Source: Enterobacteria phage FfLavender
Sequence record: PP430149.1
Direction: 5' to 3' (one strand)
Length of the DNA: 6,412 nt
The notes under the pieces are model-generated. The model had not been told where the DNA came from, did no database searches, and worked only from the letters and a program-made list of their open reading frames with translations. The translations under genes were made by a program, and so were the position numbers. The stretch's first letter is position 1, and each line of letters opens with the position of its first letter. Positions 2,118 through 6,412 of this stretch are shown in pieces.

Positions 2118-2212
2118 GTGTTTTAGTGTATTCTTTCGCCTCTTTCGTATTAGGTTGGTGCCTTCGTAGCGGCATTACGTATTTTACTCGTTTAATGGAA
2201 ACTTCCTCATGA
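2114..2212 (+). CDS. gIX: pIX, minor coat protein at the virion tip that emerges first
   Basis: ATG at 2114 overlaps the gene VII stop (ATGA). Translates to MSVLVYSFASFVLGWCLRSGITYFTRLMETSS (32 aa), stop TGA at 2210-2212, which overlaps the gene VIII ATG. Confidence 0.9.
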   Translation: MSVLVYSFASFVLGWCLRSGITYFTRLMETSS

Positions 2213-2430
2213 AAAAGTCTTTAGTCCTCAAAGCCTCTGTAGCTGTTGCTACCCTCGTTCCTATGCTGTCTTTCGCTGCTCAGGGTGATGATCCCGCTAA
2301 AGCGGCCTTTGACTCTCTTCAAGCCTCTGCAACCGAATATATCGGTTATGCCTGGGCGATGGTTGTTGTTATCGTCGGCGCAACTATCGGTATCAAGCTG
2401 TTTAAGAAATTCACCTCGAAAGCAAGCTGA
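2209..2430 (+). CDS. gVIII: pVIII, major coat protein precursor (23-aa signal peptide plus 50-aa mature protein)
   Basis: 73-aa ORF MKKSLVLKASVAVATLVPMLSFA/AQGDDPAKAAFDSLQASATEYIGYAWAMVVVIVGATIGIKLFKKFTSKAS, with the typical signal peptide, hydrophobic core and basic C-terminus. Confidence 0.97.
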   Translation: MKKSLVLKASVAVATLVPMLSFAAQGDDPAKAAFDSLQASATEYIGYAWAMVVVIVGATIGIKLFKKFTSKAS

Positions 2431-2445
2431 TAACCCGATACAATT

Positions 2446-2473
2446 AAAGGCTCCTTTTGGAGCCTTTTTTTTT
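2446..2473 (+). terminator. Rho-independent terminator downstream of gene VIII
   Basis: Perfect stem aaaggctcc / ggagccttt (2446-2454 and 2459-2467) with a tttt loop, followed by a run of nine T (2465-2473). This is the classic intrinsic terminator after Ff gene VIII. Confidence 0.85.
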
Positions 2474-2486
2474 GGAGATTTTCAAC

Positions 2487-3764
2487 GTGAAAAAATTATT
2501 ATTCGCAATTCCTTTAGTGATTCCCTTTTATTCTCATTCTGCTGAAACTGTTGAAAGTTGTTTAGCTAAACCTCAAACAGAAAATTCATTTACTAACGTC
2601 TGGAAAGACGAAAAAACATTAGATCGTTATGCCAACTATGAAGGTTGCCTCTGGAATGTAACTGGTGTAATTGTTTGTACTGGCGATGAAACTCAGTGTT
2701 ATGGCACTTGGGTTCCTATCGGTGTTGCAATCCCTGAAAATGAGGGTGGTGGCTCTGAGGGTGGTGGCTCTGAGGGTGGCGGTTCTGAGGGTGGTGGTAC
2801 TACTCCCCCTGAGTACGGTGATACTCCTATTCCGGGTTATACCTATATAAATCCTCTTGACGGCACATATCCGCCTGGTACTGAGCAAAACCCTGCTAAC
2901 CCTAACCCTACTCTTTATGAGTCTGAGCCTTTAAATACTTGGATGTTCCAGAATAATAGATTTAGTAATAGGCAAGGTGCATTAACTGTCTATACCAGTA
3001 CTGTTACGCAAGGTACTGACCCTGTTAAAACTTATTACCAGTACACTCCTGTTTCATCTAAAGCCATGTATGACGCTTTCTGGAATGGCAAGTTTAGGGA
3101 TTGCGCTTTTCATTCTGGTTTTAATGAGCATCCATTCGTCTGCAAATATCAAGGCCAATCATCTGACCTGCCCCAACCTCCTATTAATGCTGGCGGCGGT
3201 TCTGGTGGTGGTTCCGAAGGTGGCGGCTCTGAGGGTGGTGGCTCTGAGGGTGGCGGTTCTGAGGGTGGCGGTTCTGAGGGTGGCGGTACTGGCGGCGGCT
3301 CTGGTTCTGGCGATTTTGATTATGACAAAATGGCAAATGCTAATAAGGGGGCATTAACCGAAAATGCAGACGAAAACGCATTACAGAGTGACGCTAAAGG
3401 CAAACTTGATTCTGTCGCTAATGATTACGGTGCTGCTATCGATGGCTTCATCGGTGATGTTTCCGGTCTTGCTAATGGTAATGGTGCTACTGGTGATTTT
3501 GCTGGCTCTAATTCCCAAATGGCGCAAATTGGTGACGGTGATAATTCGCCTTTAATGAATAATTTCCGTCAATATTTACCATCATTGCCGCAGTCCGTTG
3601 AATGTCGTCCTTTCGTATTTGGTGCTGGTAAGCCTTATGAGTTTTCTATTGACTGTGACAAAATAAACTTATTTCGTGGTGTTTTTGCATTTCTGTTATA
3701 CGTTGCTACGTTCATGTATGTTTTTTCAACCTTTGCTAATATTCTGCGTAATAAGGAGTCTTAA
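2487..3764 (+). CDS. gIII: pIII, minor coat and adsorption protein (N1-N2-CT domains with Gly-rich linkers), GTG start
   Basis: GTG at 2487 preceded by ggag. Signal peptide [18 protein letters not shown], then [60 protein letters not shown]-like N1 sequence, two (E)GGGS linker arrays and the C-terminal anchor ...[26 protein letters not shown]. The track's 2457 start is an upstream in-frame extension across the terminator. Confidence 0.95.
2742..2801 (+). repeat. Tandem 15-nt coding repeat (gagggtggtggctct x about 4) encoding the first EGGGS linker of pIII
   Basis: Direct tandem units are visible at 2742-2756, 2757-2771, 2772-2786 and 2787-2801, with minor third-position variation. Confidence 0.9.
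3192..3311 (+). repeat. Tandem 12/15-nt coding repeats encoding the second, longer GGGS/EGGGS linker of pIII
   Basis: Runs of ggtggcggctct / gagggtggcggttct units translate to [40 protein letters not shown]. Confidence 0.9.
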
Positions 3765-3766
3765 TC

Positions 3767-4105
3767 ATGCCAGTATTGTTAGGTATTCCGTTATTACTAC
3801 GCTTTCTGGGTTTCCTTCTGGTAACTTTATTTGGTTATCTCCTTACCTTTTTGAAAAAGGGATTCGGTAAGATAGCTATTGCTATTTCATTGTTTCTCGC
3901 TCTAATTATTGGGCTTAACTCTATTCTCGTGGGTTATCTTTCCGATATTAGCGCACAATTACCCTCTGATTTTGTTCAGGGTGTACAGCTTATTCTCCCT
4001 TCTAATGCGCTTCCCTGTTTTTATGTTATTCTTTCTGTCAAGGCTGCTATATTCATTTTCGATGTTAAGCAAAAAATCGTTACTTATTTGGATTGGGATA
4101 AATAA
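3767..4105 (+). CDS. gVI: pVI, minor coat protein at the pIII end of the virion
   Basis: 112-aa hydrophobic ORF MPVLLGIPLLLRFLGFLLVTLFGYLLTFLKKGFGKIAIAISLFLALIIGLNSILVGYLSDISAQLPSDFVQGVQLILPSNALPCFYVILSVKAAIFIFDVKQKIVTYLDWDK. ATG lies 3 nt after the gene III TAA, with aggag upstream. Confidence 0.95.
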   Translation: MPVLLGIPLLLRFLGFLLVTLFGYLLTFLKKGFGKIAIAISLFLALIIGLNSILVGYLSDISAQLPSDFVQGVQLILPSNALPCFYVILSVKAAIFIFDVKQKIVTYLDWDK

Positions 4106-4107
4106 CT

Positions 4108-5154
4108 ATGGCTGTTTATTTTGTAACTGGTAAATTAGGTTCTGGAAAGACCCTCGTTAGCGTCGGTAAGATTCAGGATAAGATTGTTTCTGGCTGCAAA
4201 ATAGCGACTAATCTTGATTTAAGGCTTCACAACCTCCCGCAAGTCGGGAGGTTTGCTAAAACGCCTCGCGTTCTTAGAATACCGGATAAGCCTTCTATTT
4301 CTGATTTGCTTGCTATTGGTCGTGGTAATGAATCATATGATGAAAATAAAAACGGCTTACTTGTTCTTGATGAATGTGGTACTTGGTTTAATACTCGTTC
4401 GTGGAACGATAAGGAAAGACAGCCGATTATTGATTGGTTTTTGCACGCTCGTAAATTGGGATGGGATATTATTTTTCTTGTTCAGGATTTATCAATAGTT
4501 GATAAACAGGCGCGTTCTGCACTTGCTGAACACGTCGTTTATTGTCGTAGACTTGACAGAATTACATTACCTTTTGTTGGTACTTTGTATTCTTTAATAA
4601 CAGGCTCTAAGATGCCTTTGCCAAAATTGCATGTTGGAGTTGTTAAATATGGAGATTCGCAATTAAGCCCTACCGTTGAGCGTTGGCTTTATACTGGTAA
4701 GAATTTATATAATGCTTATGATACTAAACAGGCATTTTCTAGTAATTATGATTCAGGTGTTTATACATATTTAACTCCTTATTTAACTCATGGTCGGTAT
4801 TTCAAACCTTTAAATTTAGGTCAGAAGATGAAATTAACAAGAATTTATCTCAAAAAGTTTTCACGTATTCTTTGTCTTGCGCTGGGATTTGCATCAGCGT
4901 TTACATATACTTATATAACCCAACCTAAGCAGGAGGTTAAAAAAGTAGTCTCTCAGACCTATGATTTTGATAAATTTACTATTGACTCTTCTCAGCGTCT
5001 TAACCTAAGCTATCGTTATGTTTTCAAGGATTCTAAGGGAAAATTAATTACTAGCGATGATTTAAAGAAGCAAGGTTATTCTCTTACTTATATTGATTTG
5101 TGTACTGTTTCTATTAAAAAAGGTAATTCAAATGAAATTGTTAAATGTAATTAA
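4108..5154 (+). CDS. gI: pI, inner-membrane assembly ATPase (Walker A motif GKLGSGKT)
   Basis: 348-aa ORF starting MAVYFVTGKLGSGKTLVSVGKIQDKIV, with a P-loop near the N-terminus and a central hydrophobic segment (ILCLALGFASAFTYTYI). Canonical position after gene VI. Confidence 0.95.
   Translation: MAVYFVTGKLGSGKTLVSVGKIQDKIVSGCKIATNLDLRLHNLPQVGRFAKTPRVLRIPDKPSISDLLAIGRGNESYDENKNGLLVLDECGTWFNTRSWNDKERQPIIDWFLHARKLGWDIIFLVQDLSIVDKQARSALAEHVVYCRRLDRITLPFVGTLYSLITGSKMPLPKLHVGVVKYGDSQLSPTVERWLYTGKNLYNAYDTKQAFSSNYDSGVYTYLTPYLTHGRYFKPLNLGQKMKLTRIYLKKFSRILCLALGFASAFTYTYITQPKQEVKKVVSQTYDFDKFTIDSSQRLNLSYRYVFKDSKGKLITSDDLKKQGYSLTYIDLCTVSIKKGNSNEIVKCN
4828..5154 (+). CDS. gXI: pXI, assembly protein made from an in-frame internal start within gene I (C-terminal 108 aa of pI)
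   Basis: In-frame ATG at 4828 (pI Met241, context LGQK-M-KLTRIYLKKF) lies just upstream of the membrane-spanning segment. This matches known Ff gene XI. Confidence 0.8.
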   Translation: MKLTRIYLKKFSRILCLALGFASAFTYTYITQPKQEVKKVVSQTYDFDKFTIDSSQRLNLSYRYVFKDSKGKLITSDDLKKQGYSLTYIDLCTVSIKKGNSNEIVKCN

Positions 5155-6412
5155 TTTTGTTTTTCTGATGTTTGTTTCTTCATCTTCTTTTGCGCAAGTA
5201 ATTGAAATGAATAATTCCCCTCTCCGTGATTTCGTCACTTGGTATTCAAAACAGACGGGTGAATCTGTTATTGTTTCCCCTGATGTTAAGGGTACTGTTA
5301 CCGTATATTCATCTGATGTTAAGCCTGATAATTTGCGTAATTTCTTCATTTCTGTTTTACGTGCAAATAATTACGATATGGTTGGTTCCAATCCCTCAAT
5401 TATTCAGAAATATAACCCAAATAATCAGGATTATATTGATGAATTGCCAGCATCTGATAATCAGGAATATGATGATAATACCCCTCCGTCTGGGGGTTTC
5501 TTTGTTCCGCAAAATGATAATGTAACTGAAACTTTTAAAATTAATAACGTTCGCGCAAAGGATTTAATAAGGGTGGTTGAGTTGTTTGTTAAATCAAATA
5601 CCTCTAAATCATCCAACGTATTATCTATTGATGGTTCTAATCTATTAGTCGTTAGCGCCCCTAAAGATATTCTTTCTAGTCTGCCACAATTTCTCTCAAC
5701 TGTTGATTTACCTACAGACCAGATTCTTATTGAGGGTTTAATATTTGAGGTTCAGCAAGGTGAGGCTTTAGATTTTTCTTTTGCTGCTGGTTCTCAACGT
5801 GGCACTGTTGCTGGCGGTGTTAATACAGACCGTTTAACCTCTGTATTATCTTCTGCGGGTGGTTCATTTGGCATTTTTAACGGTGATGTTTTGGGGCTAT
5901 CAGTTCGCGCATTAAAGACTAATAGCCATTCTAAAATATTGTCTGTGCCTCGTATTCTTACCCTTTCAGGTCAAAAGGGTTCTATTTCGGTTGGTCAGAA
6001 TGTGCCTTTTATAACGGGTCGTGTTACTGGTGAATCAGCTAATGTAAATAATCCATTTCAGACAATTGAGCGTCAAAATGTTGGTATTTCTATGAGTGTT
6101 TTTCCTGTAGCAATGGCTGGAGGTAATATTGTTCTTGATATTACAAGCAAGGCAGATAGTTTGAGTTCTTCTACCCAGGCTAGTGACGTGATTACCAATC
6201 AGAGAAGCATTGCGACAACGGTAAATTTACGCGATGGACAGACCCTTTTGCTCGGTGGCCTTACGAATTACAAAAACGCCTCTCAGGATTCTGGAGTGCC
6301 GTTCTTGTCTAAAATCCCTTTAATCGGACTCCTTTTTAGCTCCCGTTCTGATTCTGACGAGGAAAGCACGCTGTACGTGCTCGTAAAAGCAACCGTTGTA
6401 CGCGCCCTGTAG
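5132..6412 (+). CDS. gIV: pIV, outer-membrane secretin (export channel for the phage)
   Basis: ATG at 5132 gives MKLLNVINFVFLMFVSSSSFAQVIEMNNSPLRDF... (426 aa) with the signal peptide and the secretin C-domain (...VPFLSKIPLIGLLFSSRSDSDEESTLYVLVKATVVRAL). It overlaps the gene I 3' end by 23 nt. The track's 5093 start is an upstream in-frame extension. Confidence 0.95.
   Translation: MKLLNVINFVFLMFVSSSSFAQVIEMNNSPLRDFVTWYSKQTGESVIVSPDVKGTVTVYSSDVKPDNLRNFFISVLRANNYDMVGSNPSIIQKYNPNNQDYIDELPASDNQEYDDNTPPSGGFFVPQNDNVTETFKINNVRAKDLIRVVELFVKSNTSKSSNVLSIDGSNLLVVSAPKDILSSLPQFLSTVDLPTDQILIEGLIFEVQQGEALDFSFAAGSQRGTVAGGVNTDRLTSVLSSAGGSFGIFNGDVLGLSVRALKTNSHSKILSVPRILTLSGQKGSISVGQNVPFITGRVTGESANVNNPFQTIERQNVGISMSVFPVAMAGGNIVLDITSKADSLSSSTQASDVITNQRSIATTVNLRDGQTLLLGGLTNYKNASQDSGVPFLSKIPLIGLLFSSRSDSDEESTLYVLVKATVVRAL

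Follow-up and report, generated by a model that had tools for sequence, protein, structure and literature searches.

The coat proteins of the filamentous phages fd and M13 are one charge apart, and the two virions have served as a model pair for the influence of rod charge on colloidal and liquid-crystal behaviour. At the second residue of the mature major coat protein, pVIII, Boeke, Russel and Model (J Mol Biol 1980) reportedly used a gene VIII amber mutation together with a glutamine-inserting suppressor and revertants, and phage with Gln at this position are said to have been viable. Cao, Kuhn and Dalbey are said to have found in 1995 that the membrane potential moves acidic residues of the procoat periplasmic loop electrophoretically. 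The procoat signal peptide of fd and M13 is 23 residues long (PMC10480500). In cryo-EM maps of f1- and M13-derived particles, the first four residues of the mature protein (AEGD) have no density, and this tip is portrayed as a flexible, exposed stretch that carries negative charge (PMC10175506, PMC10480500). The carboxylates of pVIII that react in carbodiimide chemistry are Glu2, Asp4 and Asp5, with Glu20 being poorly accessible (PMC4270384).

Here, we describe a natural pVIII allele with Gln at position 2 in a 6,412-nucleotide stretch of DNA (the window), which is the published genome of Enterobacteria phage FfLavender (PP430149.1). A methods paper lists the same accession and a length of 6412 bp for FfLavender, and sewage isolates 98.5% identical to it exist (PMC12648497). 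According to the accessible portion of the discovery paper, FfLavender is an IncF-dependent sewage isolate with 88% identity to M13, for which its isolators proposed the new species Inovirus lavender; the coat protein is not discussed in that portion (bioRxiv 10.1101/2023.03.19.532758). Our literature search found no paper on E2Q in pVIII, and the substitution in FfLavender has apparently gone unremarked in print so far.

The window comprises a whole Ff-type genome, whose genes II/X, V, VII, IX, VIII, III, VI, I/XI and IV stand in canonical order. Its nucleotide identity is 90.0-90.8% to every record in the phage collection (the best four being PP430147, PP430148, PP430150 and PP430151) and 90.5-90.8% to all classical Ff genomes (M13, fd and f1). 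Current phage taxonomy places the species threshold at about 95% whole-genome nucleotide identity, and the window, at about 91%, lies outside the species Inovirus M13, which holds M13, fd and f1. In 300-nt sliding windows taken from the end of gene IV onward, the first (bases 1-300) is 99.3% identical to fd, and identity falls to 84-86% in the next two, which begin at bases 151 and 301; the conserved stretch after gene IV probably covers the packaging signal, with the divergent part toward the replication origin. A Lambdavirus lambda record (OR474059.1, 25547-25989) is 91.9% identical to positions 1-444, in the intergenic/origin region, presumably because it derives from a cloning vector that carries an f1 origin. 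In FfViolet (PP430151.1), a genome of 6388 nt, gene IV is annotated shorter (5127-6374) than the 1281 nt of other Ff genomes, and there is a deletion in the 3' end of gene IV or in the adjacent intergenic region.

The features of the gene VIII region are collected in the table. The gene VIII product reads MKKSLVLKASVAVATLVPMLSFA up to the cleavage point and AQGDDPAKAAFDSLQ...KLFKKFTSKAS beyond it. Codons 24 (2278-2280), 25 and 26 encode Ala+1, Gln+2 and Gly+3 (2278-2286, gct cag ggt), such that the mature protein begins AQGDDPAKAAFDSL. The original prediction had read the second mature codon as cag, and both the window sequence and the open reading frame agree. In an alignment of pVIII from fd, f1, M13, Copypasta, FfIris, FfAmethyst, FfLilac and FfViolet, a single amino-acid difference, E2Q (GAG>CAG), separates the window protein from that of fd and f1 (98.6% identity); fd has the same signal peptide and the same residues 3-50. 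Residue 12 is Asp, like fd and f1, in contrast to Asn in M13. The same alignment upholds two further points of the prediction, namely that AEGDD is the canonical Ff sequence where the window has AQGDD, and that position 12 is of the fd/f1 rather than the M13 type. Gln2 in reference coats would have spoken against the prediction; it is encoded by none of the 39 phage records that have a pVIII homologue, and it is absent from the solved structures (pVIII chains in the PDB). The exact window protein is on record once, as the major capsid protein of Enterobacteria phage FfLavender (WZB35653.1), and has no match in the contig index, though it is present in the protein cluster table.

Table. Features of the gene VIII region, in window coordinates.
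Feature	Position	Strand	Remarks
Gene VIII (pVIII procoat)	2209..2430	+	ORF, 73 codons plus stop
Signal peptide MKKSLVLKASVAVATLVPMLSFA	2209..2277	+	23 codons; identical to fd
Mature pVIII AQGDDPAKAAFD...KLFKKFTSKAS	2278..2427	+	50 residues; full-length alignment to PDB fd and M13 chains
Codon CAG, Gln at mature +2	2281..2283	+	GAG (Glu) in fd, f1, M13 and the closest relatives of the window
Exposed N-terminal segment, mature residues 1-12	2278..2313	+	Acidic E/Q2, D4, D5, D12; natural replacement hot spot
Terminator hairpin and T-run 3' of gene VIII	2446..2467	+	9-pair stem, 4-nt loop
Minus-strand ORF overlapping the Gln2 site	2221-2322	-	33 aa; from the ORF list

The window protein is unambiguously a member of the Ff pVIII family. 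It scores 95.8 bits with Pfam PF19199 (Phage_coatGP8; cutoff 24.6, E = 1.6e-27). Its signal peptide of 23 residues has small residues at positions -3 and -1, and the mature chain combines a hydrophobic core with four clustered lysines near the C-terminus (K40, K43, K44 and K48). By homology to the fd/M13 procoat, cleavage is expected after Ser-Phe-Ala, and the Ser-Phe-Ala/Ala context is the same as in fd. The genes run VII-IX-VIII-III, gene VIII being followed by a terminator, and are colinear with those of FfIris, FfAmethyst, fd and M13. The one family trait that the protein lacks is the acidic residue at +2. It also matches the TrbC/VirB2 conjugative pilin family (PF04956) weakly, at 21.9 bits, below the cutoff of 27.9 (E = 2e-4), which probably reflects a common architecture of signal peptide and hydrophobic helix and not homology. 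The terminator is unaffected by E2Q. The ORF list places the start of gene III at TTG 2457, inside the terminator hairpin; homology with annotated relatives identifies GTG 2487 as the true start.

Over residues 1-20 and the alpha-amine, the nominal charge per subunit is -2 in the window protein and -3 in fd-type coats. The stoichiometry of pVIII is 2.3-2.4 nt per subunit, which for 6412 nt corresponds to roughly 2670-2790 (about 2700) subunits. The predicted loss of one negative charge per subunit at an exposed N-terminus is backed by the published evidence for exposure (PMC10175506, PMC10480500, PMC4270384). An intact-mass measurement could not tell the Gln2 coat from that of M13, since Glu to Gln and Asp to Asn shift the mass equally and both coats have a computed mass of 5237.97 Da.

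A second Gln2 allele (P0013), which carries E2Q, I32V and T36A, was found in the 90% protein cluster, of whose 33 members we inspected 15. Six contigs (L009-L014) encode it, and at least two of these (L013 and L014) are marked by their record names as wastewater or sewage samples. All six have CAG at +2, together with the synonymous variants of the lavender type that the window has. What sets P0013 apart from the window allele is a pair of additional replacements within the membrane-spanning helix; the codon and the lavender-type gene VIII background are the same. The presence of CAG on six independent metagenomic contigs indicates that Gln2 is not a sequencing artefact of one record. The six genomes are mosaic and 93-95% identical to the window. 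In one of them (L010, ENA ERZ27239179), two tracts, at window positions of about 450-1350 and 3900-4650, match fd at 95-99% identity; they cover most of gene II, and the end of gene VI with the first half of gene I, and elsewhere this genome is lavender-like. L009 also resembles fd over 3900-4650. Judged from these genomes, the lavender clade thus seems to recombine commonly with the classical Ff clade, and the Gln2 of the window and that of the six contigs may reflect common origin, recombination or independent mutation.

A DNA pattern scan of IMG/VR for CAR at +2 found nothing. Scans of IMG/VR, JGI metagenomes and GTDB genomes in which the +2 codon was left free returned 52 loci, two of which were real gene VIII sequences, one fd-like (L018) and one M13-type (L060), the others being chance matches. 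The M13-type sequence lies in a SAR11 single-cell assembly (JPUP01000080.1) and is almost certainly laboratory M13 contamination of that assembly. The lavender clade was seen only in Logan, ENA and NCBI assemblies, via exact-protein look-ups.

A broad protein search and exact-protein look-ups recovered near-complete genomes of closer relatives, whose identities to the window are given outside gene III, except for whole-genome BLAST values for L084 and L085. At 99.7%, L076 and L077 encode AEGDDPAKAAFA (D12A); L076 is 6412 nt long and comes from a Salmonella enterica assembly. L078 and L079 (99.2%) encode AEGDNPAQAAFA, which combines D5N, K8Q and D12A with S-3T and A27T, and L078 lies in a Klebsiella pneumoniae assembly. 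The sewage genomes L071 and L072 (99.0%) have D5N, and a further sewage group, L080-L082 (also 99.0%), has G3V with D5N. D5N is again found in L073 (96%), and D4A in a fragment with a lavender gene VIII background (L075). The coats of L084 (99.1%) and L085 (98.8%) are of the fully acidic fd type, AEGDDPAKAAFD, with Glu at +2. Position 2281 is G in L076, L077, L078, L079, L071, L072, L080 and L081, and the window is the only member of the 99% group with Gln2.

Two accounts of the allele were rejected on these genomes. The idea that Gln2 is a singly derived marker of the whole lavender clade had rested on the synonymous haplotype common to the window and L009-L014, and relatives 98.8-99.7% identical to the window have Glu2. 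The idea that a charge of -2 is fixed in all coats on a lavender background is refuted by L084 and L085, which belong to the lavender clade and have the fd-type acidic coat.

Charge losses occur in the classical clade as well (D12N in M13, D5G in FfIris and D5N in L074), in contrast to the coats of fd, f1, FfViolet, FfAmethyst, FfLilac and Copypasta. In total, the natural replacements in residues 1-12 are E2Q, G3V, D4A, D5N, D5G, K8Q, D12N and D12A, and the remainder of the coat protein is nearly invariant. E2Q is best read as part of a recurrent series of single acid losses at positions 2, 4, 5 and 12, of which M13 D12N is the familiar case; as far as the literature was searched, the series around Gln2 appears not to have been described before. 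FfIris D5G and the lavender alleles D5N, D12A, D4A and D5N+K8Q+D12A resemble the window allele in affecting the same segment of the same protein and in reaching a net charge of -2. They differ from it in the residue that is neutralised, and none of them carries Gln2. Several of their genomes are 99.0-99.7% identical to the window. In a tree built without genes VIII and III, the fully acidic allele is basal in the 99% group and the charge-loss alleles are derived tips. The fully acidic allele persists in both the lavender and classical clades, and any selection must therefore be conditional rather than universal.

In the 5' half of gene VIII, L078 and L079 differ from the window at about 11 nt in about 130 nt, compared with about 0.8% over the genomes as a whole, and this divergent patch, which holds all five replacements of their allele, was possibly imported from an unsampled lineage. 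Near-complete or complete lavender-clade genomes are present as separate contigs in three assemblies, GCA_007768205.1 (L076), GCA_022059495.1 (L078) and GCA_036688325.1 (L084). Their occurrence in isolate assemblies suggests carriage by clinical enterobacteria that bear F-like plasmids, or contamination.

Purifying selection between the window and fd is strong, with dN/dS of 0-0.062 and dS of 0.10-0.56 across all genes, and pV, pVII and pIX are identical at the protein level. Gene VIII has 12 synonymous differences and one replacement, E2Q (dN/dS 0.023). The +2 residue is D, E, D and E in the coats of If1, IKe, I2-2 and PEar6, respectively (36-59% identical), and Gln2 is therefore derived. Two distant If1-like coats from a large protein collection (P0034 and P0039) have Gly or Thr at this position. 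An acidic +2 residue thus looks like a strong habit of the pVIII family and not an absolute requirement.

Across 11 genomes of the 99% group, replacements affect 7 of 73 codons in pVIII compared to 17 of 1448 in the seven other non-pIII proteins (Fisher p = 8e-5), and the ratio of replacement to synonymous-only codons is 7:7 in pVIII versus 17:70 elsewhere (p = 0.02). In the ancestral allele, a single-nucleotide missense change within residues 1-12 would remove an acid in 27% of the possible cases and add one in 6%. Among the inferred events, at least 8 of 10 remove an acid (binomial p = 7e-4), or 6 of 8 when identical alleles on different backgrounds are merged (p = 6e-3); these counts rest on a recombining phylogeny, in which a D5N, D12A or E2Q change that arose once may have been spread by recombination and counted more than once. 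No acid gain in residues 1-12 was found among the inferred events, though five single-step paths to one exist. The sole loss of Lys, K8Q, sits in the sole allele that has lost two acids and brings its charge back to -2. The charge-loss alleles arose by G>C, A>C, G>A and A>G changes, and a single mutational hot spot is therefore no explanation for them. The window and L076 differ by 13 replacement and 11 synonymous changes among 24 coding differences. Recent tip branches carry an excess of replacements in general, and part of the excess in pVIII may be slightly deleterious variation that has not yet been purged.

Gene III shows a pattern of its own. Over window positions 2659-3144 (precursor codons 58-220, in the N1/N2 domains), the window differs from L076 by eight replacements (A58V, V62I, I142T, Q147E, K162R, G171S, D215H and E220K, with the L076 state first) and no synonymous change; several of the eight occur in no other genome of the 99% group. 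All nine nucleotide changes in this interval are non-synonymous, and recombination was rejected as their source. The receptor-binding domains of pIII are probably evolving fast and adaptively.

How might Gln2 act? A single G>C change neutralises one of the three tip carboxylates (Glu2, Asp4 and Asp5). The tip makes no ordered contact in the capsid, and neither assembly nor DNA packaging should suffer. Given that residues 1-4 are disordered and exposed to solvent, the effect of E2Q should be electrostatic. Repeated over about 2700 subunits, Gln2 would give the virion a surface charge like that of M13 and not that of fd. During procoat insertion there would be one fewer acidic residue to cross the inner membrane, and an insertion step with one acid fewer in the loop may depend less on the membrane potential. 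The alleles E2Q, D4A, D5N/G, D12N/A would, on this model, be interchangeable ways of losing charge from a fully acidic ancestor in both Ff clades. We infer these effects on virion charge and membrane insertion, and likewise the action of selection.

Our main interpretation, to which we assign a probability of about 60%, is that Gln2 is a real, functional natural allele with an electrostatic effect, and that the recurrence of charge loss, its direction and K8Q hint at selection on net surface charge. Recurrence in one direction, together with K8Q beside a double acid loss, would suggest that such selection acts on net charge and not on any single residue. Candidate causes of such selection are insertion efficiency, adsorption, aggregation and antibodies. 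A stronger form of the proposal is that net surface charge of the Ff virion is a selected, tunable trait in sewage and gut populations, in which -3 repeatedly becomes -2 and the loss of K8 compensates a double loss. We put this form forward tentatively, and would sooner bet against it than for it. If it is true, M13 D12N and FfLavender E2Q would be one and the same adaptive move, possibly coupled to the fast evolution of the pIII receptor-binding domains. A report cited by PMC4270384 describes lower infectivity when the phage surface is neutralised, and this counts against selected charge loss.

Alternatively, Gln2 could be an effectively neutral or slightly deleterious polymorphism in a disordered, unconstrained tip that tolerates almost any replacement, with acids hit often because a third of the residues there are acidic, and with dN/dS values inflated over the short term. 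The invisibility of residues 1-4 in cryo-EM fits this explanation, as do the restriction of Gln2 to the window in the 99% group, the genome-wide excess of replacements on the window's short branch, the coexistence of the ancestral fully acidic allele in both clades, and the Gly or Thr at +2 of the distant If1-like coats. This explanation would account poorly for the preponderance of acid losses (at least 8 of 10 events, or conservatively 6 of 8, against 27% expected, with no gains) and for the coincidence of the only Lys loss with the only two-acid-loss allele, where it restores -2. Moreover, Asp12 lies in ordered helix beyond the four disordered residues and yet is replaced too, and three genera conserve an acidic residue at +2. 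We regard neutrality as somewhat unlikely. That Gln2 instead arose during isolation or propagation on E. coli MG1655 with an F plasmid, as an adaptation or as a passenger of plaque purification, is a thought invited by the status of FfLavender as a cultured isolate and by the Glu2 of its nearest uncultured or assembly-derived relatives (L076, L077, L084 and L085). Such an origin is very unlikely when CAG is found on six metagenomic contigs that were never cultured, at least two of them (L013 and L014) from wastewater or sewage, and when other charge-loss alleles also come from uncultured data; the eight private replacements in pIII are likewise too many for a few passages, indicating that the branch is not purely a laboratory product. 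Selection on the G>C change at the level of DNA or RNA (mRNA structure, translation or a minus-strand feature) would have to explain why different nucleotide changes at four codons converge on the loss of one acidic residue. We found no supporting evidence for it, and none that the minus-strand ORF at 2221-2322 is a gene; a sequencing error, for its part, would not recur in independent assemblies as this allele does. We consider both of these explanations highly improbable.

Gln2 alone is a minor finding, a single conservative substitution in a published genome that adds to the natural charge variants of a very familiar protein; the allelic series is the more interesting result. A coat without Glu2 would have one fewer of the three coupling carboxylates of M13 (PMC4270384). 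The N-terminal tip is also the insertion site of display libraries, and antibodies against the tip may bind a Gln2 coat differently. Should the repeated loss of charge prove adaptive, the electrostatics of the virion surface would count among the traits that shape the fitness of filamentous phages in sewage and the gut, with a bearing on procoat membrane insertion, adsorption and aggregation.

The closest analogue of Gln2 is the Asp12/Asn12 difference between fd and M13. In both cases one outer acid is neutralised while the rest of the protein is identical, the charge becomes -2 rather than -3, and the resulting coats have the same mass of 5237.97 Da. The two differ in that position 12 lies in the first helical turns and position 2 in the disordered tip, in that M13 exchanges Asp for Asn and the window Glu for Gln, and in that the window genome is about 9% diverged from M13, fd and f1. 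FfLavender thus reaches the net charge of M13 at another, fully disordered position, and could provide a natural control for separating net charge from charge position. The amber system attributed to Boeke and colleagues likewise places Gln at +2 of an otherwise wild-type coat, which leader peptidase would still cleave, but its variants were engineered or selected in laboratory f1 or M13, whereas FfLavender is a wild isolate. An origin of the window as a laboratory revertant of a +2 amber mutant was rejected on its divergence of about 9-10%, in all genes, from every f1, M13 and fd record. In pVIII engineered for display and nanomaterials, such as the f8-1 vector with D4E (P0010) and the f88 vectors (P0019 and P0023), the five N-terminal residues are altered or extended and assembly is kept; these N-termini, unlike that of FfLavender, are artificial, are often present beside wild-type pVIII and are not charge-matched.
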